DNA of 64,000 nt from an uncultured Candidatus Poseidoniales archaeon (GCA_902573015.1 CACGIE010000001.1:8528-72527); one strand, 5' to 3'; shown: positions 18,647 through 43,180, counted from the first letter of the stretch. A program made the numbers and translations. The notes: a model not told the origin generated them from the letters alone.

Positions 18647-19468
18647 ATGCTAGGTGAACGAAAGATGGCATCTAGACAGAAGACACTTGTGCTAATCTTA
18701 GTATCAGTATTTGTTGCAGGGTCTGGTGAGGCCCTGCATAGTGGTGTTGGAGGAAATGCAAATGGCCAAGGTGAGGTTTCCATTGCTGGGTGCACCTGTC
18801 ATGCAGAGGAGCCAGACAATTCTGTTACAGTTATTATCGATGGAGTTCCTTTCCATTATGCACCTGAAACCTCCTACGAGATGAAGTTGCAGCTAATTGG
18901 AGGGCCTGAGGCAAACCTTGATTCGCATACTGCCGGATTTGCCATGAGGGTCAGTGAGGGATCCCTCGACGCTTCAGAAGGATTCGAGTCAATGGTCCAA
19001 AATTGGGAAGGAGATGTGGCCACCCTAACACACACCGATGCGGGGTCGAGAACTTCTGATAGGTCGTGGATGTTTGTTTGGACGAGTCCGCCTGAAGGTT
19101 CCGGTTCAGTGGTTTTCAATGTAGCAGGGAACTCAGTAAATGGGGATCTAGCACCATCTAGTCTAGATCGTTGGAATCGTCTTACTGCCAGTATTGACGA
19201 AGGTGAAGACAATGGAAGAACAAAAACCGTTTTTTCAGGAAATGGGGATATTAACCCCCCAGCCCCTGTAGAAGGAAAGAAAGACATCCACAAAATGGGA
19301 GCTAAACTCCTAGCCCACTGGTTGGGACTCCTTGGATTCGGAGCAGTAATGCTAGTTATTTTGTTCTGCGGGCTATTCCTTAGATACGGATTCTCCAGGC
19401 ATTACAAGGGCAGAAGTAACCTACTGAGGCTAAGAATAAAGCATCTTAGAAGGGGCGATCAACTATGA
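18647..19468 (+). CDS. secreted, C-terminally membrane-anchored protein with a single CxCH motif (probable start at 18665); first gene of the Rieske/cyt b operon
   Basis: Signal-like MASRQKTLVLILVSVFVAGSGEA, motif IAGCTCHAEE, and a C-terminal TM (LLAHWLGLLGFGAVMLVILFCGLFL) with a basic tail. Its stop overlaps the next start. Confidence 0.6.
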   Translation: MLGERKMASRQKTLVLILVSVFVAGSGEALHSGVGGNANGQGEVSIAGCTCHAEEPDNSVTVIIDGVPFHYAPETSYEMKLQLIGGPEANLDSHTAGFAMRVSEGSLDASEGFESMVQNWEGDVATLTHTDAGSRTSDRSWMFVWTSPPEGSGSVVFNVAGNSVNGDLAPSSLDRWNRLTASIDEGEDNGRTKTVFSGNGDINPPAPVEGKKDIHKMGAKLLAHWLGLLGFGAVMLVILFCGLFLRYGFSRHYKGRSNLLRLRIKHLRRGDQL

Positions 19469-19914
19469 AAGACGACACTGTGATGAGGCTTTTGCGACAA
19501 GTAAAGTCTGGAAAGGTAAGCGTAGAAGATGCCAGAGTGGCTCTTGAAGATGCCGCGCTGACGGAAGAGGCCTTCGAAGCAGCAGTCAATCATGGAGTAT
19601 TCAACGAAGTCAAGCCCGGGACAATTGTAAGAGCTAGTCTTGCACCATCTGGGGATTCGTGGCTGATCATAATGGTAGGACTATGGGGGGTTCTTTGGAC
19701 TCTTTATTGGGCGGGAGCCCTAGCATACGGACTATACCAACACTGGGATCAGCAACTGCTCGCATTCAATCTGGCGATGACTCTTCTCACACTAATAATC
19801 ATGGGGATTGTATATCTAAAATATGTACTTCCGGATGTGATAATTGTCAAGCATAGGAGAAACAAGTACATTACAAGTCACGATACAAACTCTTGGAAAA
19901 AGTACGAGGTCTAA
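19465..19914 (+). CDS. small two-TM membrane protein with an N-terminal SHOCT-like helix
   Basis: 149 aa. LLRQVKSGKVSVEDARVALE, then two hydrophobic helices. 4-nt overlap upstream and 2-nt gap downstream. Confidence 0.5.
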   Translation: MKDDTVMRLLRQVKSGKVSVEDARVALEDAALTEEAFEAAVNHGVFNEVKPGTIVRASLAPSGDSWLIIMVGLWGVLWTLYWAGALAYGLYQHWDQQLLAFNLAMTLLTLIIMGIVYLKYVLPDVIIVKHRRNKYITSHDTNSWKKYEV

Positions 19915-19916
19915 AA

Positions 19917-20765
19917 ATGGCAAGGAAATTTAAGCTACGTCCTGTCTCATCTGAGGATGAGCTCGTTCACGAGAGGAGCGGTGCAATAGACAGAAGGGAG
20001 TTCATGAGGCTGTCTTTCAATACAGCAGCCGGATTGATCACTACTGCATCACTGGGCAGTGTCGGGTTCGCTTCTTTCCTAATGGGCCAAGCGGAAGGAG
20101 GTGCTTCGGACTCTTCCATAAAATTCTATGTCCCCAAGGGTTCAGATGTGTGGTACAGTAACATGGACAAGCAGCCCATGACGTTGCAATCTTTCGTAGA
20201 CGAGTCTGCAAACACAACTACCGGAATGGTTGGAGCCGCAGGACTTTGGTCCGGCTTACCCATCATTGCCACATACGTCCCACACGAGGAAAACAAAAAC
20301 AAGCCATTAGAAGCAGGCACCCCTAGATTCCAGATGATGGACGGATACACCGCCGGCGGTGCATATGTAGGATCCGGCTATGAAATCGAAGAAAAGGAGG
20401 AATTTGCATCGTTGAATATTCATGATAATCTGATCATTGTTTTCGCTAGATGTCCTCACTTATGCTGCATTCCCGGATGGCAATTGGTGAGTAATGACTT
20501 CACTGCAGATAGCTGGCTGCCTGGTGGAACTGACTCAAGTGGGAACAAATCATTCTGTATCTGCCACTCTAGCAGGTACGACCACACTGTTATAGAGAAG
20601 AATACAGCTAGAAATAGATCCAATGGACAGGAGTTTGACTTCATAGGAGTAAAGAAGACCGGTGGGCCTGCTCCGTACGGCATGCCACTGATTCCTTTCA
20701 CAGTAAGTGGAGGGGTTATTGAGGCACTTCCAGATTTCATGGACTGGTACACATTCTGCGGGTAG
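19917..20765 (+). CDS. Rieske [2Fe-2S] protein with a twin-arginine signal/anchor
   Basis: DRREFMRLSF (Tat motif), box I CPHLCC (20451-), box II CICHSS (20556-). I chose the ATG at 19917 over the TTG at 19893 in the track, because it follows the upstream stop directly. Confidence 0.85.
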   Translation: MARKFKLRPVSSEDELVHERSGAIDRREFMRLSFNTAAGLITTASLGSVGFASFLMGQAEGGASDSSIKFYVPKGSDVWYSNMDKQPMTLQSFVDESANTTTGMVGAAGLWSGLPIIATYVPHEENKNKPLEAGTPRFQMMDGYTAGGAYVGSGYEIEEKEEFASLNIHDNLIIVFARCPHLCCIPGWQLVSNDFTADSWLPGGTDSSGNKSFCICHSSRYDHTVIEKNTARNRSNGQEFDFIGVKKTGGPAPYGMPLIPFTVSGGVIEALPDFMDWYTFCG

Positions 20766-21647
20766 GTGAAAAATATGATTCAATTCTGGTTCCTATGGAT
20801 TTTCATTGCTTTCGTTGTTGTAATTGTCGCCTTCACACTCAGAAGAGAGAGGGACGATATGCCAAGGAAGGACATTCTGAGGGCAGTAGAGACAAATGCT
20901 GGCAGCATGGGTCTAGCCGAGAAGTTGTTCCTATGGGCTTTCTCTTGGCTAGACACCAGATTCAGGATCCAAGACTACTGGGGCATGAGCAAAGACTCCT
21001 ACTACAGCATGCATCGTCAGATGCCTTTGACTCATGCCGAGAAGTACAAACTGAGAATAATTTGGTATTGGTACCCGCTCTACTGCTTGGGCGGAATTTC
21101 ATTCCTGGCATTCATCATCTTGGTGATTACTGGTACCATTCTAGGATTCTACTATGTCCCGGGAGGGGATTTGGACTCTGATCCGACACCGGCCTATGCA
21201 TCGATGGAGTTCATCATGCTAGAGTTGCCTTTCGGATATATCATCAGGTCTATACACCATTGGGGAACGCACTTCTTTGTTGCTGCAGTTTTCCTACACA
21301 TGTGTAGAGTCTATTTCACTGGGGCATACAGAAACCCCAGGGAACTGAACTGGTTGATCGGAGTTGCTCTAATGTTCTTCTCCATTTTCTTCGGTTACTC
21401 TGGATATCTGCTGCCATGGGATAGTTTGGCCTTTGGGGCGGCCACCATCGGTATCAACATGGCCATGGCCACCCCTCTGATTGGGGAGTGGGTGGCTAAT
21501 GCTATGTTCGGAGGGACTACATTGACTGGTCAGACAGTAGTCAGGATGTACTTCCTTCACGTGTTCGTTCTGCCGCTGATTGTTACTGTTCTCATTCTGG
21601 CACATCTATTCATTGTCTGGGTACAGGGAATTGCGGAGCCGCACTGA
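20766..21647 (+). CDS. cytochrome b, N-terminal four-helix (b6-like) domain
   Basis: IRSIHHWGTHFFVAAVFLHMCRVYFTGAY, FSIFFGYSGYLLPWD, and MYFLHVFVLPLIVTVLILAHL. These give the two His pairs of helices B and D. Confidence 0.9.
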   Translation: MKNMIQFWFLWIFIAFVVVIVAFTLRRERDDMPRKDILRAVETNAGSMGLAEKLFLWAFSWLDTRFRIQDYWGMSKDSYYSMHRQMPLTHAEKYKLRIIWYWYPLYCLGGISFLAFIILVITGTILGFYYVPGGDLDSDPTPAYASMEFIMLELPFGYIIRSIHHWGTHFFVAAVFLHMCRVYFTGAYRNPRELNWLIGVALMFFSIFFGYSGYLLPWDSLAFGAATIGINMAMATPLIGEWVANAMFGGTTLTGQTVVRMYFLHVFVLPLIVTVLILAHLFIVWVQGIAEPH

Positions 21648-21656
21648 GGTGATTGG

Positions 21657-24471
21657 ATGGGGATTATAGAGAGATTTGGAAGAATTGCTGACACCTATGT
21701 TAGTGAGAAGGAGCAGCTCCTAGGGGCGGAAGAGGAAAGGAGGAGAGTGCATACTGGCCATGGTTTCTGGCCGACGGAAGTTCTCAGGGATACTATCATT
21801 TTCGCGTCGATAGTGATGGTAATTGCATTCTACTCTTGGATTATTCCCCCCCCCTCTGCACAATGCTGCAGATCCATATGCCCAGGCGGGCTTCGTTTTC
21901 CCGGATTGGTACGTTCTATTCTCTTACGGTTACCTAAGATGGGGAGAGTATTTGCCGCAATTCGACATCCCTGCTGGCCCGATAGGGGAGTTCTTTGGCC
22001 AGCCAATCGTGTCATGGAACGCCGGAGTATGGGGGGCGATGATCACTGGGCTCCCAGTTGCAATTCTTGCACTACCACCATTCATCATTGGAAAGAGGGA
22101 GAAGAGGGGGGTAGAGGACCCATGGTTCGCCACGGCGGGAGCGGTTTACCTAGCGCACGTATGGTTTATTTCTGTATTCTCGATTAACATCTTCCTGGAG
22201 ATGTATGGTCAGAATCGTAGTGATTACTGTTGGGCCGGGCCCCATGGGACCTTCTTCTGCGGTACTCAACCCCCGTGGACTGCTGAGGTATTCAATGCTG
22301 TTCCATGGATTCTCACAGGTGTTTTCATCTTCGTCGTATTATACTTCTCGGTGAGGAAATTCCTGATAGGTCCGATGGGCTCTAGGCTGACTCCCATTCT
22401 TGGCAGACAGGTCGCCGTAGGATCTGTGGTAGCCACCGTTCTCCTATGTACGGTTACTTGGCCGGTCTACGAAAACGGATTCTGGAATCAGAGAGGCCTG
22501 GGAACGATGGGATTCTGGGAGTACCAGTATGATGCCAAGCTCGTGGAGTTGGATGGAATAAGGGGGCAGCCGGGAGATACCCTAATCCATGTGGACAAGG
22601 GTCCCGTATGGGCGGAATGGGAGGACGAATGCCTTCCATACGAGCAAACGAGTACCCTGTCTGTCTGGGAAACTATGGAAGAGGGGACGACGCATTCTGA
22701 ATGGTGTATTTTGCCCGCAAAACATTTTGTTAACTGGGGAATTTTCCAACCAACTCGTAGTCAGATAGTAGATTTCAGCGGGGTGAACGGTCATGCCGAC
22801 ACACAAACGTCTAGGAATATTGGGGCGAATGAAATCATCTACCAAGGAGAAGATGATGGCAGTCCGATTTCAATTTCTGAGTCTATCCAGTTCGAGGTCG
22901 AGGATCTTGGCATATCCAAGGTTCAAACTGACATAGGTTGCAACTTCAGAACTACAGTAAGAAATGCTGGTGAGCACTCTCAGAGCCTGACTCTAACAGA
23001 TGATTCGGGGCAGGAACTTTGGTCCAACTCCGGCTCCACCTGCGAGTCAGGAACAATGTACCTCGATTCTGGAAGATCATACACGATTTCCTTCACTACC
23101 CTGTCCGAGCAGGTTAATGACTCGGTCACAATGATTTCAGACTTCTCAGCAGTTTCCTACCAGCCTCTACTGCTCAACGATGATGGGACTGCACTAATCA
23201 GATCAGAAGTCAGTCTCAGCGATGAGGAACTGGCATCCATGTCTGTCGCAAATCCCACCTACAAGAAGAATCCCAAGAGTCTTGATGCCAAGCTGATCTA
23301 CTCGATGTTCATACCATGCCTAGGAGTAGGGGCTCTTGTTTTCATGCTCCTCAGGAGCATGGCACGAGGATATGAATGGGAGATGAATAAGTGCTATGGA
23401 TGCGATTTGTGCGATGATGCCTGCCCTGTGAGGTTATTCAACGCTGGAGATAAACTGAACATAATCTACAACACCTGGAACAATGAAGACGACGGAGTCC
23501 CACTTTACTCGTGTCTAACCTGCACCGCCTGTACAAATGCCTGTCCACAATTAGTCGACTACGACTCATATATTGACATCAGAAGGAACCTTGTCGTAGG
23601 CGGCCCTCCTGCTACGGAAATCCCTCACACAGTGCTGCAAGCAGTACTAGCTGCTGAAGCAGAAGAAGACGCGGATGACTCATTCATCCCTGTAGAGGAG
23701 TACCCATTAGACTCTAGCATAGGTTACTATCCGGGATGTGTAGACTACATTGACCAGGAGATGGTCTTCAGTCACGTGAACAAGGGCACTATGGATCTCG
23801 GAGATGCCACAACTTCCGCATTCACGATTTTCGAGGAGATGGGCGAGGATGTGACATACCTAGGTCGCGACTTCCTGAAGTGCTGCGGACATGACCAGAA
23901 ATGGCAGGGGATGAGTGAGGTCTTCGAGAAGTTGAAGGCTTACAATCAAAAGAAGCTCGGAGAGAGTGGGATAGAGACTCTAGTAACTTCTTGTGCTGAG
24001 TGTTTCAGAACCTTCGCTTTGGACTATGAGTTAGATGACATGAAGGTAATGCACACCACAGAATTCCTTGTCGAGAAGGGTTTCGACATGGACTTGAAGT
24101 CAAACGATGAAGTCACCGTAACTTACCACGATCCATGCAGGCTGGGTAGGCAGATGAATATCTACGACGAGCCCCGGGACTTGGTAGGTTCTGTAGACGG
24201 GGTGAATCTAGTGGAAATGGAACATACCGGAGAAGACGCTCTCTGTTGTGGAGTCTCCAGCATGATGTCATGTAATGAGAACAGCAGGGCACTAAGAGTA
24301 CAGAGATTCGATGAAGTAAGGGAAACAGGGGCAGACATCATGCTGACATCTTGTCCGAAGTGTGTTGCTCATTTCGAGTGTCTAAAGTTCGAGGGAGATC
24401 CAAGACATGACTTCGAGATTCTAGATGTTGTAAGCTTCCTGGCTAGGCAGATAGAAGAGTCCAGGGGATAG
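21657..24471 (+). CDS. cytochrome b C-terminal (subunit IV-like) domain fused to an HdrD/GlpC-like 2x[4Fe-4S] + 2xCCG module; interrupted by a 1-nt frameshift in a C9 run (21846-21854)
   Basis: ORFs 21657-22187 and 21823-24471 join in the C9 run to give ...VMVIAFYSWIIPPPLHNAADPYAQAGFVFPDWYVLFSYGYLRW, that is helix E plus a PEWY-type loop. Downstream lie extra TMs, a hydrophilic domain of about 270 aa and one more TM. Then come CYGCDLCDDACP, CLTCTACTNACP, YYPGC..KCCGHD and YHDPC..LCCGVSS..SCPKC. Confidence 0.85.
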
Positions 24472-24474
24472 AGC

Positions 24475-24588
24475 ATGACCAAGATCGGTGACGTCCTGAA
24501 GAGGAGGACTGCTGAGCAGTCCAGAATTAGGAAGCAACTGAATTCAATGAGAGCAGAAGAGGAGGCCCTCCTGAAGGGGGGGGGATGA
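24475..24588 (+). CDS. 37-codon ORF ending in a G9 run; possibly the N-terminus of the downstream ferredoxin
   Basis: ATG lies 4 nt after the upstream stop. Translation is MTKIGDVLKRRTAEQSRIRKQLNSMRAEEEALLKGGG*. The ferredoxin frame is open back into the G9 run. Confidence 0.25.
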   Translation: MTKIGDVLKRRTAEQSRIRKQLNSMRAEEEALLKGGG

Positions 24589-24613
24589 CGCGGTTGCTTG
24601 GGTAAAGGAAGAG

Positions 24614-24808
24614 ATGTGCATAGGATGTGATCAGTGCACGATAGTTTGTGATGACGATGCCATAGAGTTGTACGATACACCGCTGGCCAGCCCAATTATG
24701 GAAATTGATGTAAATAGAAAGGCGAGAGTCCTCAGGGAACCCTGCACTGGATGCAAGCTTTGCGTACTTGCTTGCCCCACTGATGCGATAATAATGATTG
24801 ACAGGTGA
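24614..24808 (+). CDS. 2x[4Fe-4S] ferredoxin
   Basis: 64 aa with CIGCDQCTIVC and CTGCKLCVLACP cluster motifs. Confidence 0.75.
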   Translation: MCIGCDQCTIVCDDDAIELYDTPLASPIMEIDVNRKARVLREPCTGCKLCVLACPTDAIIMIDR

Positions 24809-24812
24809 TTGC

Positions 24813-25097
24813 ATGGGGAAGGATGATCCAGTCAGGTTCGGGGCAGAGTTTGGCCCTCACAGAACAAAGAGGGCGAGTGGGGTTTCATTGTCTACATTCA
24901 AGACCCTTGTGTGGGTTTCTAATCTTGGTGGCCTATTCCTATTCGCAATTGGAATGGAGTTGATGATAAGAGGGTCATTCTGGTTCGGAATCACTTGTAT
25001 AGTGATTGGAGTTGCCATCGCACTCTTCCCTTCGAACTATGAGATAGTAGGGATGGAGGAAATGGATGAAGGATGGTTGGCGGGGGAAGAAGAATAA
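24813..25097 (+). CDS. small two-TM membrane protein (ATG at 24813 preferred over TTG at 24798)
   Basis: Hydrophobic segments LVWVSNLGGLFLFAIGMELMI and FWFGITCIVIGVAIALF. Tightly packed in the operon. Confidence 0.45.
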   Translation: MGKDDPVRFGAEFGPHRTKRASGVSLSTFKTLVWVSNLGGLFLFAIGMELMIRGSFWFGITCIVIGVAIALFPSNYEIVGMEEMDEGWLAGEEE

Positions 25098-38418: not shown

Positions 38419-39252
38419 TCAGGGACCGTTCTGTTCCCACCAAAGATGCCCATATGCTGCCCATTGCTCCATTGACCACCCATCTGGAAGTCCGGTGATT
38501 GGTAGCGGCATCGCTCCTTCGGGAACTTGGTGAGTAGGGAGAGTGGGGACAGTTGCCTGAAGCGTTTCATTGATCTCTGACTCCGAGACCCCCCCGGTAA
38601 CAACGTCCCCTGTTGTGTAGGTATCTAGAGCAGCCGCTCTTCTTTCTTCCTTTGTCCCTGCCTGGAGGGCTGATCCTCGAGGAATCAGTTCTTCATCCGA
38701 ATCAACTGGGGAGAATTCCTGTCTGGCCCTAATCCCAAGTGAGATTAGTGCACCCAATACAACTACGAACAGTACTGCTAGAGTCCAAGCTGGGAGGCCT
38801 AAAGTTTCGAACAATCCTGATATGCCCCCTTGATTGGAGGATTTGGATTTGCTGACATCAAAAACAAAGGACGAGTTAGTCAGAGTTGCCGTGCTGTCCT
38901 GAGATGTTGAGTTGGCGTAGAATCGCAATTGAGTGAGTCCGTCCTCTGCCGATTTTCTAGGGGTTATTGAGACTGTAATTTCGTAATGATTCCCTGGTTC
39001 TAATTCCTCTGCTGGCCATTGGTATTTTACGGTCCAACCATCGATTTCTTCATGATTGATTAATATCGGGGATTCGGTGTTACCCTTGTTTTGCACTACC
39101 AATACCAGAGTTGTTTCCTCCCCCTCGGCAATTCCCTGAATGCTGGGGGTCTCAGATTGAGCTTCCAGCCAAACTGAGGGTAGGACTGTTACATCCAAAT
39201 CTAATGTGACTGTTTCAGTGGAGAGGCTGGGCGATGTGGACTGTATTATCAC
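38419..39252 (-). CDS. C-terminal part of the S8 protease gene: last beta-domain, TM anchor and cytoplasmic tail. Separated from 39260-43180 by a 1-nt frameshift in a G8/C8 run.
   Basis: No signal peptide of its own. TM segment LPAWTLAVLFVVVLGALISLGI followed by RARQ. The frame is open upstream into the C8 run at 39278-39285. Confidence 0.7.
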   Translation of the reverse strand: MIIQSTSPSLSTETVTLDLDVTVLPSVWLEAQSETPSIQGIAEGEETTLVLVVQNKGNTESPILINHEEIDGWTVKYQWPAEELEPGNHYEITVSITPRKSAEDGLTQLRFYANSTSQDSTATLTNSSFVFDVSKSKSSNQGGISGLFETLGLPAWTLAVLFVVVLGALISLGIRARQEFSPVDSDEELIPRGSALQAGTKEERRAAALDTYTTGDVVTGGVSESEINETLQATVPTLPTHQVPEGAMPLPITGLPDGWSMEQWAAYGHLWWEQNGP

Positions 39253-39259
39253 TGGAACC

Positions 39260-42200
39260 TTATTCGATAGAGTTCCTGGGGGGGGTTCCGCTAGGTAACT
39301 GTAGAGCGATATTGACTACAGAGTCCCGATTCATGTCCATGGAGAAAGTGCTTCCTGTCAGGAAGCCTCCGGACCAACCCTCAGGAAGAGTGCCTAGTGT
39401 GAGTTCAATCAACAGTGGTACGTTTCCAGAATTGTGCAAGAAAATATTGGCATTCCCATCCCTACCCAAAGAGATTGAGAATCCTTCTTCAGCCTGTACG
39501 TCCAGAGTTGTGATTTCTTTAACTTCTAGGACCGTCGCATTAGTGACGATATTGTCGTCTAAAGTAGTCTTGATAGTCACGGTGTTTCTGTCACCTTTTA
39601 CTGAAGCTAGGGGAACAATAGTCCTGATAATTATTCTAGATTCTGAACCGGGATCGATATCTGTTTGTATTGTTGTGTCCTCTCCCAATGGAGGATCTTC
39701 GTCGTATAGATAAACCTGTATTGGCCAAGTATTGCTAGATGATAATGCCCTTACGTCGAAATTTAGTGGAATATTTCCCCTGTTGGAAATTGTCAGTATT
39801 GTAGAAATTGTGTCTCCATTTTGTACTGCACGAGATTCAGTTATGGCTACGGGTCCTAATTCGTTTCCTTCAATATCTGAAATCTGGGTTGAGAATGCCC
39901 TGCTCTCTAGAACCTCGACTGTGGCTGTCTCCGTAGTTTGCAGATTTGGATCATTAACCGAAGTTGTGATGCAGGTTACTAGATTTGTATCTCCTGCGAG
40001 GATACCAGAAGAGGCTGGCGGGACCTTTACGCGAATAGGGACAGGAACGAATTGGAGCCTGCTGAGCGGACCAATTGTTACTTCGGGAACTTGGCTGCTT
40101 CCTACGTGAACAATCCATCTATCTTCTGTTTCACAGGAAATTCCGTATTCAGTGGGGCCATTTCCTATGTTCCTAACTGATAGTGTAAAAAGCGCGAATT
40201 CGTTTGGTTCGGCCCCTAGATCTTCTGTCCCAGCAGGAACAGTGAAGAGTCCCTCAACCCGGTCTATATCGACAGAAAGTCGAACAGAATGCGAAATTGT
40301 TGGTGCCATCTTGTCGTATAGAATCAGGTCAGTCACGAAATGTCCGGGGAGTGCGAATCTACTCTCCACGTCAGCATCTTCGTCTGTTAAATTAAGAGAA
40401 ATTAGGACTCTGTCTCCAGACTCTCCCGATGGAGACAGAACCCATGGTCCTGAATCGCTAAGGGTCTCGGACCACTCATCCTGAGGAGACGACATGATTC
40501 CTGAATCTCCTATTTCCTGGACTGCAGAAATCGAAAGTTCCACGGTGGTTTCCGAAGTTCCTTCGTTAACTAACTCCAACTGGAAGTTTGCCCAGCTCTC
40601 AGTGCTGGGGTTGATGTCCCTATTCCTAGCAGACTGAGACTCGACGAAATCAGTAGGATAAGACCCATCTGCCATTAGGGGTATGATTCTTACACCAATC
40701 TCTGTAACGTTGAATTCTAGATCGAAGATGTTGTTATTCGTCCCGATGGTCTCGTCGTTCAATTCATCAACTTGAGAAAGGTAATCTAGGGTTAGTCTGA
40801 CCAAGTGAGTCCCGGTCGACTGGAATGAGTGGTAAATAGAGAATGTCTCTATCTGCCCCCCCGGTAATGAGGGCATTGAGTATGTCCCTATTTCGTTTCC
40901 ATCGGTCACATCTTCAAGAGATATTGAGTACTGTCCAGTTGGAGCTGCAGCCTGATTTATCCAGGAAAGTTGCAGGGAAATTGTGTCCCCCTTTAGAGGA
41001 CTGGTTTCTGAACTGAAGATGGAATTGGGAACTACTGTTAAGTCGGCCTCTTGCAATTCGATTGCGTTGGAAGAAACAACCAGTGAGAAGTCTTGGGAGA
41101 ATCCGCCTGAATGCCCTATCTTGACTGTCCAAATTCCTGATTCAGTAGACGCGATTCTGACCCTCTCTAGATTGTTCAAAATGTCGATTTTGCCAGTTGA
41201 CTGACTAAAACCATTTGCGAAGTCGTTACCGTTGAACTGCTCTCCCGAAGGCGAGGTTACGACTAAGTCTAGATCGTTTACTAGCCGACTTGTATTCTGG
41301 TCTGCTGATGCGGACCCTTCCCTGTCGTTCCAAGACAGAGTGGCATCAAGTGCGTTATTCCCGGAAACTTCGAAGGTATAGATGAAACTATGGCCGGGTA
41401 AGAGATTTCTATCCTGATCCAAAAATAGCGTTTGATTTATCCCGTTGCTTTGGGGGAAAATACTGTTTGAGATGTTTAGTTGCCCCCAACCCTCTTGCGG
41501 GTTTGGGACATCTAATTCTCCAATATCTTCGGCACCGTTTACGAGTATTGCTCTAATCAAATCAGAGTTTGGGGACGTCATTCCGACTTCCTCTCTCAGG
41601 AACTGTCGAACCATTGCTGAAGCACCCGCCACCACCGGAGTAGCCATAGAAGACCCACTTAGGGTCATGTAGAGTGGAGTTGTTCCATCGGTATGCAACG
41701 ACTCTGAGCAACTACCTCCTGTAGTTAGGTCGGCCTCTTGTGCTCTAGCAGAGCAGATCATAACACCTGGTGCAACCAATTCGGGCTTTATTCGGCCATC
41801 GGAAGTAGGTCCTGATGATGATTCGTCAGAGACCTGTCCTACGGGTTCAGAACCGAATGCTCCTGTTGTGGAAGCACCAACAGTGAGGGAATTCTTTGCC
41901 GTGCTCGGAGATGCGACACCCGAGTTTGACATATCTCCCGATGAGAAGATAACTAACATCTCTGGATAGTCGTTCGCGAATAAATCAATTGATCTGGAAT
42001 CGGAAGTGTACTCGCCGACCAGGTTCTCGCTACCCCAACTGTTTGTGTGGATATTTGCATCGTTCAGAAAGGAGTGTTCGAACATATCGTACAGAGAACC
42101 CCACCGTGCGAGTATTCCAGAACTATCCACTTCTAACTGGTAGAAATGAAATGTAGACTCGGGGACAATGCCCGTAGAATTTGAGTCTCCCGACCCGTCC

Positions 42201-43180
42201 CCCAGAAGAGTGGCGGTAACATGGGTGCCGTGGCCAGTGTTTGAGTCAGCACCAGAGCTGTCTGGACCAAATAGGTTGTAGATCGGATTTCGGAGACGAT
42301 TTCCGAAGTCACCGTGATCTACGTCAAGGCCCGTATCTGAAATTCCTATGACTTCTCCCTCTCCACGTAAATCTAATTCAGATAGTGATCTTGCATAGTC
42401 TACTCCTGAGATTATGCTAGCATTTGAATTGTGTATTGCAAGGACCGGACCCATCTCCACCCTTAGAACGCGGAAATCTGTAGCAAGAGAGGAGATTAGA
42501 GATGTTTTAGCGGATTTTACCTTGCACAGATATTTGTCGCAGTGAGACTGCGCATGTAATTCTCCCGTTTTCTCGAAAAGTTCCCTTTCAAGATTTGATA
42601 GATCTTCGGGAGAGTTAGAGGGAGAAGGAGTGATGTCGAGATCGATTAGGGCCCCATCCAGATCCATTAACGGGTACAGTGTCTTAGAAATCTTCCACGT
42701 CGTTGGAAACTGGCCGACCCACCTAACTTGATTCAATTCTTGGATGGTATTGATTTGCTCGCCTATTCTCGATGATGCAATGCTAATGACGACGGAATCA
42801 TCAGGAAAATGATCAATAATTTGTATTCCTAGGAAATTTAACGAGTCCTCCAGTTCCTGTAGGTCGGAGCTATGGGACTGAACAATGAATAGTCTTCCAT
42901 CATTGAATTCGGAGAGGCCTATCTTTTCCCATGGTCCTGCTGGGGTAGATTCAGTCAGAGGATCGAATTGTCCGAATGGTGAGTGGATTAATCCTGAAGA
43001 CTCACTAATTGGATGATTGCCAATTGATGGATTATGAAGAACTACCCAATTATTTTCTGTTATGGGTGAGGACATAGATTGTGTCCTTTCTTCATCAATA
43101 CTTTCCATTGAAATTTTAGAAGAAATTGGTGAAAGTAAAATCAAAGAAACTGCAAAGTAAATTGCTTTTGCAGAAGTCAT
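39260..43180 (-). CDS. giant secreted subtilisin-like (S8) serine protease with many Ig/CARDB-like beta domains
   Basis: Signal peptide MTSAKAIYFAVSLILLSPISS. Catalytic triad motifs ISDTGLDVDHGDF (Asp), GHGTHVTATLLG (His) and SGSSMATPVVAGASAMV (Ser). About 800 aa of repeated beta-type domains follow. Confidence 0.9.
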   Translation of the reverse strand: MTSAKAIYFAVSLILLSPISSKISMESIDEERTQSMSSPITENNWVVLHNPSIGNHPISESSGLIHSPFGQFDPLTESTPAGPWEKIGLSEFNDGRLFIVQSHSSDLQELEDSLNFLGIQIIDHFPDDSVVISIASSRIGEQINTIQELNQVRWVGQFPTTWKISKTLYPLMDLDGALIDLDITPSPSNSPEDLSNLERELFEKTGELHAQSHCDKYLCKVKSAKTSLISSLATDFRVLRVEMGPVLAIHNSNASIISGVDYARSLSELDLRGEGEVIGISDTGLDVDHGDFGNRLRNPIYNLFGPDSSGADSNTGHGTHVTATLLGDGSGDSNSTGIVPESTFHFYQLEVDSSGILARWGSLYDMFEHSFLNDANIHTNSWGSENLVGEYTSDSRSIDLFANDYPEMLVIFSSGDMSNSGVASPSTAKNSLTVGASTTGAFGSEPVGQVSDESSSGPTSDGRIKPELVAPGVMICSARAQEADLTTGGSCSESLHTDGTTPLYMTLSGSSMATPVVAGASAMVRQFLREEVGMTSPNSDLIRAILVNGAEDIGELDVPNPQEGWGQLNISNSIFPQSNGINQTLFLDQDRNLLPGHSFIYTFEVSGNNALDATLSWNDREGSASADQNTSRLVNDLDLVVTSPSGEQFNGNDFANGFSQSTGKIDILNNLERVRIASTESGIWTVKIGHSGGFSQDFSLVVSSNAIELQEADLTVVPNSIFSSETSPLKGDTISLQLSWINQAAAPTGQYSISLEDVTDGNEIGTYSMPSLPGGQIETFSIYHSFQSTGTHLVRLTLDYLSQVDELNDETIGTNNNIFDLEFNVTEIGVRIIPLMADGSYPTDFVESQSARNRDINPSTESWANFQLELVNEGTSETTVELSISAVQEIGDSGIMSSPQDEWSETLSDSGPWVLSPSGESGDRVLISLNLTDEDADVESRFALPGHFVTDLILYDKMAPTISHSVRLSVDIDRVEGLFTVPAGTEDLGAEPNEFALFTLSVRNIGNGPTEYGISCETEDRWIVHVGSSQVPEVTIGPLSRLQFVPVPIRVKVPPASSGILAGDTNLVTCITTSVNDPNLQTTETATVEVLESRAFSTQISDIEGNELGPVAITESRAVQNGDTISTILTISNRGNIPLNFDVRALSSSNTWPIQVYLYDEDPPLGEDTTIQTDIDPGSESRIIIRTIVPLASVKGDRNTVTIKTTLDDNIVTNATVLEVKEITTLDVQAEEGFSISLGRDGNANIFLHNSGNVPLLIELTLGTLPEGWSGGFLTGSTFSMDMNRDSVVNIALQLPSGTPPRNSIE

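Follow-up and report, generated by a model that had tools for sequence, protein, structure and literature searches.

A widespread Rieske/cytochrome b6 complex of Thermoplasmatota archaea whose third core subunit carries an HdrD-like iron-sulfur module

The stretch of DNA analyzed here (the window) comprises 64,000 nucleotides from an uncultured Candidatus Poseidoniales archaeon (GCA_902573015.1, CACGIE010000001.1:8528-72527), and its gene at 21657-24471 codes for a subunit, the third of the core, in a type of Rieske/cytochrome b6 complex that is typical of Thermoplasmatota archaea. The subunit joins a membrane part of the cytochrome b C-terminal (subunit IV) type to a module, predicted to be cytoplasmic, with an HdrC-like domain for two [4Fe-4S] clusters and two HdrB-like CCG domains. 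A Rieske/cytochrome b complex normally runs its Q cycle as a closed system, with the low-potential electron handed back to quinone inside the membrane. The module of the archaeal subunit may instead wire haem bH/ci to a ferredoxin- or flavodoxin-type carrier encoded just downstream. The parts of the subunit are as follows, with positions counted from the first letter of the window and residues from the start of the joined protein.

21657-24471, + strand: fused subunit gene, 937 amino acids once one C of a run of nine is removed
21846-21854, + strand: C9 homopolymer with one surplus base (probable true length C8), the cause of the apparent frameshift
21657-22467, + strand: membrane domain, residues 1-270, predicted from hydropathy and the positive-inside pattern to have a cytoplasmic N-terminus, helices E-H and a fifth transmembrane helix
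21901-21912, + strand: Qo motif PDWY, residues 82-85, read directly; ef loop, predicted on the outer (p) side
22468-23292, + strand: predicted extracytoplasmic hydrophilic domain, residues 271-545 (275 amino acids), from hydropathy and alignment
23293-23349, + strand: sixth transmembrane helix, residues 546-564, predicted from hydropathy to lead the chain back to the cytoplasm; next comes the junction motif RGYE[WY]EMNKCYGC
23392-23547, + strand: HdrC-like 2x[4Fe-4S] ferredoxin domain with motifs CYGCDLCDDACP and CLTCTACTNACP, from Pfam and the family profile
23725-24372, + strand: two HdrB-like CCG domains, PF02754 found twice (E 9e-23)

As assembled, the gene is split between two overlapping plus-strand open reading frames (ORFs), 21657-22187 (176 amino acids) and 21823-24471 (882 amino acids), with frames offset by +1. 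The C9 run is the sole plausible junction between them, and deletion of one C gave a continuous 937-residue product that reads ...SWIIPPPLHNAADPY... at the junction and contains ...FYSWIIPPPLHNAADPYAQAGFVFPDWY... A search of 5.8 billion proteins with this product returned more than 120 intact homologues of 926-942 amino acids, with 73-95% identity and 100% query coverage, in independent Marine Group II (MGII) assemblies. Many full-length homologues were present on tens of independent contigs from ENA, JGI, NCBI, Tara and Logan. Where homologues had been named, they were called "Fe-S oxidoreductase", "heterodisulfide reductase subunit D" or "4Fe-4S dicluster domain-containing protein" and stemmed from metagenome-assembled genomes (MAGs) of Ca. 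Thalassarchaeaceae or Euryarchaeota, that is, from MGII. The junction sequence SWIIPPPLHNAADPY was read identically in 14 of 14 intact aligned homologues, all of which have IPPPLH there, and in two relatives (L083 and L085) the corresponding run is interrupted and one base shorter than the C9 of the window. The ratio of non-synonymous to synonymous substitution rates (dN/dS) between the window and L083, which are 84% identical in DNA and 95% in protein, was 0.015 over the joined frame and was low upstream and downstream of the run alike. The joined frame is under strong purifying selection, and the longer ORF has no internal stop across its 882 codons.

The fusion is thus real and widespread. 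Because more than 120 intact full-length homologues exist in independent assemblies, a local mistake of this assembly in the length of a homopolymer most likely explains the frameshift. The next gene, for a ferredoxin, carries a second lesion, a G9 run at 24576-24584, and each of the two lesions adds one base to a G/C homopolymer of 8 to 9 bases, the pattern expected of sequencing error. Programmed frameshifting or phase variation at the C9 run was rejected, since the run is absent in relatives, the next gene has its own +1 lesion and selection on the frame is strong; a chimeric assembly of cytochrome b and HdrD-like halves was rejected on the full-length homologues from many independent contigs. 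An earlier note on this DNA, made from the sequence alone, had joined the two ORFs into a protein of about 937 amino acids and had named a chimeric join as what would undo its reading. The joining is confirmed by the C deletion and the intact homologues, and no chimera was seen; its treatment of the frameshift as a separate finding is corrected as to cause, to a probable homopolymer error accompanied by a second one in the next gene.

The membrane part of the subunit belongs with the C-terminal half of cytochrome b. Its helices E, F, G and H are of the cytochrome b C-terminal/subunit IV type, the fifth transmembrane helix (residues 252-270) is lineage-specific, and the gene lies directly 3' of a b6-type gene (20766-21647). 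The PDWY motif was invariant in 14 of 14 diverse family members and was found in every locus scanned. Direct profile matches of the window protein were weak: Pfam Cytochrom_B_C (PF00032) aligned to residues 71-173 at 12.2 bits against a cut-off of 20.7 (E 0.22). A profile of the N-terminal 292 residues of the MGII proteins gave six matches in the PDB, all to b6f subunit IV (best E 0.023), in which GHxFWPTEVLRD...AADPYAQAGFVFPDWY is aligned with YGEPAWPNDLL...ADPFATPLEILPEWY. An exhaustive phmmer search of 1.84 billion representatives with the membrane-plus-outside part found only 87 relatives, among them five distant ones (P0178, P0182, P0184, P0185, and P0195) that matched over the ef loop and helix F at E 2e-10 to 2e-5 and also bear the dicluster domain, with or without the two CCG domains. 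Distant fused relatives (phmmer E 2e-10 to 3e-7) passed the PF00032 cut-off with 22.5-32.6 bits, and P0184 missed it by 0.1 bit. A profile of the non-MGII family members, with matches spanning helices E to H, recovered the C-terminal half of actinobacterial QcrB (E 4e-11), bc1 cytochrome b (E 6e-10), and PetD (E 3e-6). Since the fused relatives pass PF00032 and their profile matches QcrB and PetD, cytochrome b C-terminal homology of the window protein is supported transitively. Helices E-H would complete the cytochrome b fold and supply the PDWY Qo motif on the outside.

Six transmembrane segments were predicted from hydropathy (residues 46-64, 126-144, 162-180, 214-232, 252-270, and 546-564), and the lysine plus arginine counts of the successive short loops (7/1/4/1/4) follow the positive-inside pattern of a protein with both termini in the cytoplasm. 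Given six segments and this pattern, the N-terminus is predicted to lie on the cytoplasmic (n) side, the PDWY loop and the 275-residue stretch to face outward and the iron-sulfur/CCG module to be cytoplasmic. Subunit IV is known to have its N-terminus inside; the predicted topology fits that orientation, and the cluster-bearing domain has no export signal. The outside domain is acidic, has four cysteines that were invariant in 15 aligned MGII sequences and evolves faster than the rest of the gene (dN/dS 0.047 vs. 0.004-0.009 elsewhere, window vs. L083). A Pfam search with it gave no family. In an AlphaFold2 (AF2) model of a full-length homologue, built from a 47-row alignment and with a mean predicted local distance difference test score (pLDDT) of 60, the domain had beta strands at residues 393-503 (pLDDT 65-85), for which Foldseek gave only weak GOLD/MAM-like fold matches (E ~1e-3) and nothing convincing. 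The extra transmembrane helix, outside domain and further transmembrane helix between helix H and the dicluster domain were found in MGII only. The outside domain is absent in the shorter fusions P0185, P0195, and P0178 and, by these alignments, is an insertion specific to MGII. The junction after the last transmembrane helix, (R)GYE[YW]E[LM]NKCY[GQ]C, was kept in all fusion states, and the dicluster domain was always fused there.

The soluble module carries a complete set of cluster ligands. Pfam Fer4_8, Fer4_9, and Fer4_10 were above threshold, the 4Fe-4S dicluster domain lies at residues 575-631 of the joined protein, and the eight cysteines of its two CxxCxxCxxxCP motifs were invariant. 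The first CCG domain has the pattern C694-x47-C742C743-x35-C779xxC782 and the second C827-x35-C863C864-x34-C899xxC902, ten cysteines in total, all invariant. When the C-terminal 373 residues were compared with solved proteins, the one strong match was EtfD of Mycobacterium smegmatis (9ojn; single-sequence E 5.7e-22), and the family profile matched EtfD (E 1.5e-34), then HdrC (E 2.4e-8) and HdrB (E 7.6e-8); the EtfD alignment begins only at the second dicluster motif. The CCG region was modeled by AF2 at pLDDT 80-90, and Foldseek matched it to EtfD (E 3e-13), LutA (TM-score 0.77) and HdrB (TM-score ~0.65). The best partial matches in NCBIfam were TfrB, LdhH, GlpC, and GlcF, with DsrK and TmcB also matched in part. 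No NCBIfam equivalog was assigned, the scores being far below the cut-offs (TfrB 108.9 vs. 385, GlpC 44 vs. 278, DsrK 33.6 vs. 400), and assignment to TfrB, GlpC, GlcF, DsrK or HdrD was dropped for that reason. Because no Hdr equivalog reached its cut-off and the partner is a Rieske/cytochrome b6 pair, the module should, on its sequence, be called HdrD-like rather than HdrD. The window protein reads KCCGHD and CAEC, with Glu at the position of EtfD His583. At the first of these motifs, in the first CCG domain, KCCGHDQ is replaced by KCVGHDQ in P0185, P0234, and P0235 and by KCTGHDQ in P0195. These variants resemble the Cys-Thr of EtfD, which goes with a linear [3Fe-4S] cluster, so the cluster type at this site probably differs between clades.

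These results bear out most of the architecture proposed in the earlier note: a cytochrome b/subunit IV N-terminus (at the level of family profiles and of relatives past PF00032, with the direct PF00032 score below threshold), the PDWY reading at 21901-21912, the transmembrane count with a large hydrophilic domain outside, the four quoted cysteine motifs, and an HdrD-type dicluster plus double CCG module on the n-side. Its comparison of the domain order with HdrD, GlpC and SdhE holds for the HdrD type and is only partly right for SdhE, which lacks a dicluster domain.

The neighboring genes of the operon in the window are all on the same strand and surround the subunit gene as follows.

18647-19468, + strand: choice-of-anchor-V (Reeler-like) protein, 273 amino acids, first gene of the operon (NF041895, 82.5 bits vs. 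a cut-off of 42)
19465-19914, + strand: DUF7318-type small membrane protein (PF24002, E 1.7e-5, just below cut-off; synteny)
19917-20765, + strand: Rieske iron-sulfur protein (twin-arginine translocation motif DRREFMRL, box I CPHLCC, box II CICHSS)
20766-21647, + strand: cytochrome b6-type subunit, 293 amino acids (PF00033, E 6e-42)
24475-24808, + strand: 2x[4Fe-4S] ferredoxin gene, ~110 amino acids when repaired, split by the G9 insertion
24798-25097, + strand: 99-amino-acid membrane protein, kept downstream in many loci; a Pfam search gave no family

The operon as a whole has the Rieske [2Fe-2S] motifs, the four haem-ligand histidines and the Qo motif. The Rieske protein matched NCBIfam Rieske_proteo at E 5e-8, below its cut-off. 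The b6-type subunit had b6 as its best PDB matches (E 1.6e-41) with Cys35 and the four haem-ligand histidines aligned, and it carries a YCLGG motif and an N-terminal extension with one transmembrane helix. The DUF7318 protein is probably an accessory subunit. The choice-of-anchor-V protein faces outward, with an N-terminal signal or transmembrane segment and a C-terminal transmembrane helix with a basic tail. Its G48-C49-x-C51-H52 and H129 are highly conserved across 45 homologues: C51 and H52 never varied, and the others were kept in 96% or more. These residues may bind haem or a metal in an unusual site. No c-type cytochrome or cupredoxin was found in the operon as a dedicated high-potential acceptor, and because cytochrome c1/f is likewise missing from it, the choice-of-anchor-V protein is a candidate, from its sequence, for the p-side electron acceptor of the Rieske protein. 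The ferredoxin gene as assembled consists of 37- and 64-amino-acid ORFs, which in relatives are one intact Fer4 gene of 110-122 amino acids; the repaired product matched Fer4_21 (E 6.8e-13) and, weakly, rnfB (NCBIfam). It may be the orphan RnfB reported for MGII.

Elsewhere in the window, a G8 run at 39278-39285 lies 18 nucleotides before the stop of a 1306-amino-acid minus-strand ORF (39260-43180), which is adjoined on the same strand by a 277-amino-acid ORF (38419-39252) offset by one frame. The run may mark another homopolymer frameshift, splitting a protein of ~1590 amino acids.

The operon is conserved across the phylum Thermoplasmatota. The survey, based on one genome per GTDB species, comprised 142 confirmed loci, of which 80 were fetched and their stop-to-stop ORFs searched with the window proteins. 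The recurring order was choice-of-anchor-V protein, DUF7318 protein, Rieske protein, b6, subunit IV with dicluster domain, double CCG protein, ferredoxin-containing protein and small membrane protein. The contexts of distant relatives had the same order, and the succession Rieske, b6, subunit IV held in more than 60 loci. The loci came from Thermoplasmata MAGs, Marine Group III (MGIII), Poseidoniia and MAGs labeled Methanomassiliicoccales. The form with subunit IV and dicluster domain was also found in one Halobacteria MAG, and subunit IV alone was present in the fetched Halobacteriales and Hydrothermarchaeota MAGs. The earlier note had called for a search of Thermoplasmatota and MGII genomes for the fusion; the fusion turned out to be one of several states of an operon found throughout the phylum, and the CCG module often has a gene of its own. 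MGIII and most Thermoplasmata encode that module as a gene of ~300 amino acids directly after subunit IV with its dicluster domain, and everything is fused in MGII and in three other clades, the P0185 type (~583 amino acids), the P0195 type (~626) and the P0178 type (~789).

The gene that follows the CCG module varied with lineage. It encodes the 110-amino-acid 2x[4Fe-4S] ferredoxin in MGII, flavodoxin plus ferredoxin (Flavodoxin_1, E 7.5e-27) or ferredoxin plus ferredoxin fusions in MGIII and a polyferredoxin in the Thermoplasmata clade of locus L001; in the clade of L002, a flavin adenine dinucleotide (FAD) protein, a Fer4 protein and FlpD/MvhD stand there. Examples of these varying carrier genes lie at the following coordinates of the fetched loci.

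L018, 9894-10931
L046, 9862-10740
L003, 7290-8636
L002, 9909-13074

Such variation suggests lineage-specific cytoplasmic partners for the same membrane complex. Two further observations concern the surveyed loci. In the short fully fused clades (L001-L007, L040, L043-L044, and L047-L048), the b6 gene has a large N-terminal extension, with stop-to-stop ORFs of 629-1090 amino acids; the products in L001 and L002 have 758-832 amino acids and a Big_5 Ig-like domain, a lineage-specific outside decoration analogous to the outside domain of MGII. The archaeal operon also occurred in three MAGs with bacterial labels, L012 (Nitrosomonadaceae), L016 (Chloroflexota) and L073 (Proteobacteria). As the gene order and protein sizes of L012 and L016 are essentially those of the MGIII loci, contamination during binning is probably the source of all three, not lateral transfer.

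The Cys of YCLGG in b6 is the residue that binds haem ci (cn), and its occurrence was scored by alignment column. The Cys was present in the window b6 and in 38 fetched loci; all the scorable ones bear the iron-sulfur module, two being cut at the contig end. It was absent, with Thr, Ala, Met, or Ser in its place, in 11 of 11 scorable loci whose subunit IV has no iron-sulfur domain. A large epipelagic MGIII clade (L009-L035, and L041) has YSLGG for YCLGG and retains subunit IV with the dicluster domain, its flavodoxin-ferredoxin partner and the CCG protein encoded apart. The link of the haem ci Cys with the iron-sulfur module is suggestive.

Several known systems share parts of this architecture. 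The archaeal subunit resembles PetD and the C-terminal half of bc1 cytochrome b and QcrB in being encoded right after a b6-type gene, in its n-side N-terminus and in the succession of helix E, a P[DE]WY ef loop and helices F and G, with helix H shared with long cytochrome b. Unlike PetD, it has ~670 extra residues, which make up two transmembrane helices, the outside domain and the cytoplasmic iron-sulfur/CCG module. Like mycobacterial EtfD (the MSMEG homologue of Rv0338c, 9ojn), it fuses a membrane cytochrome part to two cubane [4Fe-4S] clusters and two CCG domains. The CCG clusters of EtfD, a linear [3Fe-4S] and a noncubane [4Fe-4S], form with the two cubanes a wire with steps of 7-9 Å that carries electrons of electron transfer flavoprotein (ETF) from the cytoplasm to a b haem and on to menaquinone (PMC13083937). 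However, the membrane part of EtfD is a five-helix NarI-like domain with a single haem, whereas that of the archaeal protein is of the cytochrome b C-terminal type. Thr and His substitutions give EtfD its linear [3Fe-4S] and a non-catalytic noncubane cluster; the archaeal protein retains all ten HdrB-type cysteines and has Glu in place of the His that seals the D2 cluster of EtfD, an HdrB-like configuration that in Hdr is catalytic for disulfide cleavage.

HdrDE and the DsrMK, HmeCD and TmcBC pairs likewise place a dicluster domain and two CCG domains with the full cysteine signature in the cytoplasm beside a dihaem membrane cytochrome. Their cytochromes b are of the NarI/HdrE type, with no Qo site and no Rieske protein, and their substrates are CoM-S-S-CoB or the DsrC trisulfide; the hosts of the archaeal complex are aerobic heterotrophs, unlike the setting of HdrDE and DsrMK. 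Two other groups are closer in concept. In the bacterial PDWF-FeS clade, a fusion links cytochrome b either with a 4Fe-4S domain and MvhD or with ferredoxin and a flavin domain (Kao and Hunte, 2014; PMC4122944); anammox Rieske/cytochrome b complexes have extra n-side subunits and were proposed to make NAD(P)H (PMC12954380). Like the archaeal complex, both combine a cytochrome b module and its Qo motif with cytoplasmic 4Fe-4S, MvhD or flavin domains, and they have been taken to mean that cytochrome b serves other bioenergetic complexes or delivers low-potential electrons (PMC4122944; PMC12954380). The PDWF-FeS clade differs in being bacterial, in lacking CCG domains and in gene clusters that contain no Rieske gene (PMC4122944), and the anammox complexes, which are not archaeal, differ in their operon and in having separate NAD(P)-type subunits (PMC12954380). 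PDWY itself has been linked to low-potential (menaquinone-type) systems in this nearest-precedent literature. For MGII, an "MGII specific (complex III)" and an orphan RnfB-like iron-sulfur protein have been named (PMC6336850), and no mention of heterodisulfide reductase was found in the searchable MGII-centered literature. The earlier note knew of no Rieske/cytochrome b complex with this fusion. The searchable literature likewise gave no description of the subunit and no combination of CCG, Rieske, cytochrome b and Thermoplasmatota, although subscription-only papers were outside the search and a prior mention is possible; at the level of concept, the PDWF-FeS and anammox complexes are precedents (PMC4122944; PMC12954380).

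The reading that we put forward, and regard as poised evenly between right and wrong, is that the module is an iron-sulfur wire that connects the n-side haems with a ferredoxin or flavodoxin carrier in the cytoplasm and through which electrons normally run inward to quinone. Reduced ferredoxin, for example from 2-oxoacid:ferredoxin oxidoreductases, would donate to the CCG clusters and these to the cubane clusters, from which electrons would pass by way of haem ci/bH to quinone at the Qi site. The quinol so formed would be oxidized at Qo, and the complex would act as a built-in entry point for ferredoxin to the respiratory chain. That a wire links haem and carrier can be said more firmly than that it runs inward; the inward direction is favored by analogy, since EtfD, the nearest characterized relative, runs from a cytoplasmic donor to quinone and the CCG modules of GlpC, LutA, GlcF and EtfD typically link cytoplasmic donors to quinone. 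Electron transfer from ferredoxin to quinone is also strongly downhill, and aerobic heterotrophic archaea are expected to make reduced ferredoxin, the product of archaeal 2-oxoacid:ferredoxin oxidoreductases. Such an entry point would have a parallel in EtfD and in the ferredoxin-to-plastoquinone route that has long been proposed for b6f, and a ferredoxin-to-haem-ci route is debated for cyclic electron flow.

Several points weigh against this reading. The direction of flow is argued from analogy and physiology only. The full HdrB-type cysteine set, unlike that of EtfD, is the configuration that reduces disulfides, so a thiol/disulfide substrate may be involved. Ferredoxin may already be handled by complex I, which MGII reportedly possess (PMC6336850). 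Haem ci is not obligatory, since epipelagic MGIII has Ser in the place of its Cys and retains the module, and the association of the Cys with the module is uncorrected for phylogeny. The membrane part of the AF2 model was poor (pLDDT 45-60), and because of this unreliability it allows no geometric conclusion on the distances between clusters and haems.

The opposite direction, export of the low-potential electron as the earlier note had proposed, is unlikely but deserves serious weight. Quinol would be bifurcated at Qo, one electron passing by way of bL and bH/ci into the iron-sulfur/CCG module and the other to the Rieske protein and a high-potential acceptor, and the module would reduce ferredoxin, flavodoxin or a disulfide in place of, or beside, the Qi site. 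The complete C..CC..CxxC signature of catalytic HdrB and HdrD in both CCG domains would suit this, as would the likeness to HdrDE and DsrMK, in which a membrane cytochrome b hands quinol electrons to a cytoplasmic CCG protein (the partial DsrK and TmcB matches), and the HdrA-like FAD, polyferredoxin and FlpD/MvhD genes downstream in one clade. Similar ideas have been advanced for the anammox complexes (PMC12954380) and the PDWF-FeS clade (PMC4122944). Export would, however, require the electron to overcome the membrane potential and reach a carrier at about -400 mV in hosts described as aerobic heterotrophs (PMC6336850), and EtfD, the closest homologue, runs inward. Such hosts should produce, not lack, reduced ferredoxin; the operon scan showed no thiol cofactor or DsrC-like gene, and in some members the first CCG domain reads CVG or CTG, like the non-catalytic site of EtfD. 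Of the export proposal, the HdrD-like n-side module stands and the direction is conjectural, with EtfD running the opposite way and the ferredoxin/flavodoxin neighbors fitting either direction.

It is improbable that the module is instead the electron-collecting subunit of a substrate dehydrogenase (of the LutA, GlcF, GlpC, or TfrB type, or an ETF acceptor) that the complex anchors, with the ferredoxin incidental. The LutA fold match, EtfD as top match and the TfrB, LdhH, GlpC, and GlcF partial matches would fit such a role, and MGII are noted for fatty-acid and protein catabolism (PMC6336850). The NCBIfam scores, however, fall far under their cut-offs. Across ~80 loci, moreover, no dehydrogenase or ETF gene is conserved in the operon, which makes this the weaker option, whereas the ferredoxin/flavodoxin carrier is conserved. 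That the fusion is an artefact of mis-assembled halves or a decaying pseudogene in this genome is scarcely credible: this gene and the adjoining ferredoxin gene are frameshifted as assembled, but the independent intact homologues, the sequencing-error character of both +1 lesions, the low dN/dS that extends upstream of the run and the uninterrupted 882 codons all speak for a living gene.

Complexes that combine a Rieske/cytochrome b6 core with an HdrD-like n-side module occur widely in public data, are mis-annotated and, as far as the literature could be searched, are undescribed; the labels "Fe-S oxidoreductase" and "heterodisulfide reductase subunit D" hide the missing subunit IV of complex III. 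The b6-type complex, in most cases with its haem ci Cys intact, has a conserved iron-sulfur module and a dedicated ferredoxin or flavodoxin at its n-side. We tentatively suggest, at somewhat less than an even chance, that Thermoplasmatota including MGII and MGIII run an unrecognized type of complex III in which the Q-cycle haems are hard-wired through HdrCB-like clusters to ferredoxin or flavodoxin, working as an energy-conserving ferredoxin:acceptor oxidoreductase or, reversibly, as a ferredoxin/disulfide reductase powered by bifurcation at Qo. If the wire is functional, electrons would enter or leave the respiratory chain of some of the ocean's most abundant archaea at a new point, and the wire would bear on the so far unexplained "MGII-specific complex III" and orphan "RnfB" (PMC6336850). 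It would also extend the theme of HdrD, EtfD, and DsrK, a membrane cytochrome with a CCG module, to the Rieske/cytochrome b superfamily. The complex would then be a natural test case for electron exchange between n-side haem and ferredoxin in b6-type complexes, a question of photosynthetic cyclic flow, and a ferredoxin-wired complex, if true, would be a natural, covalently built version of the debated b6f route from ferredoxin to haem ci.

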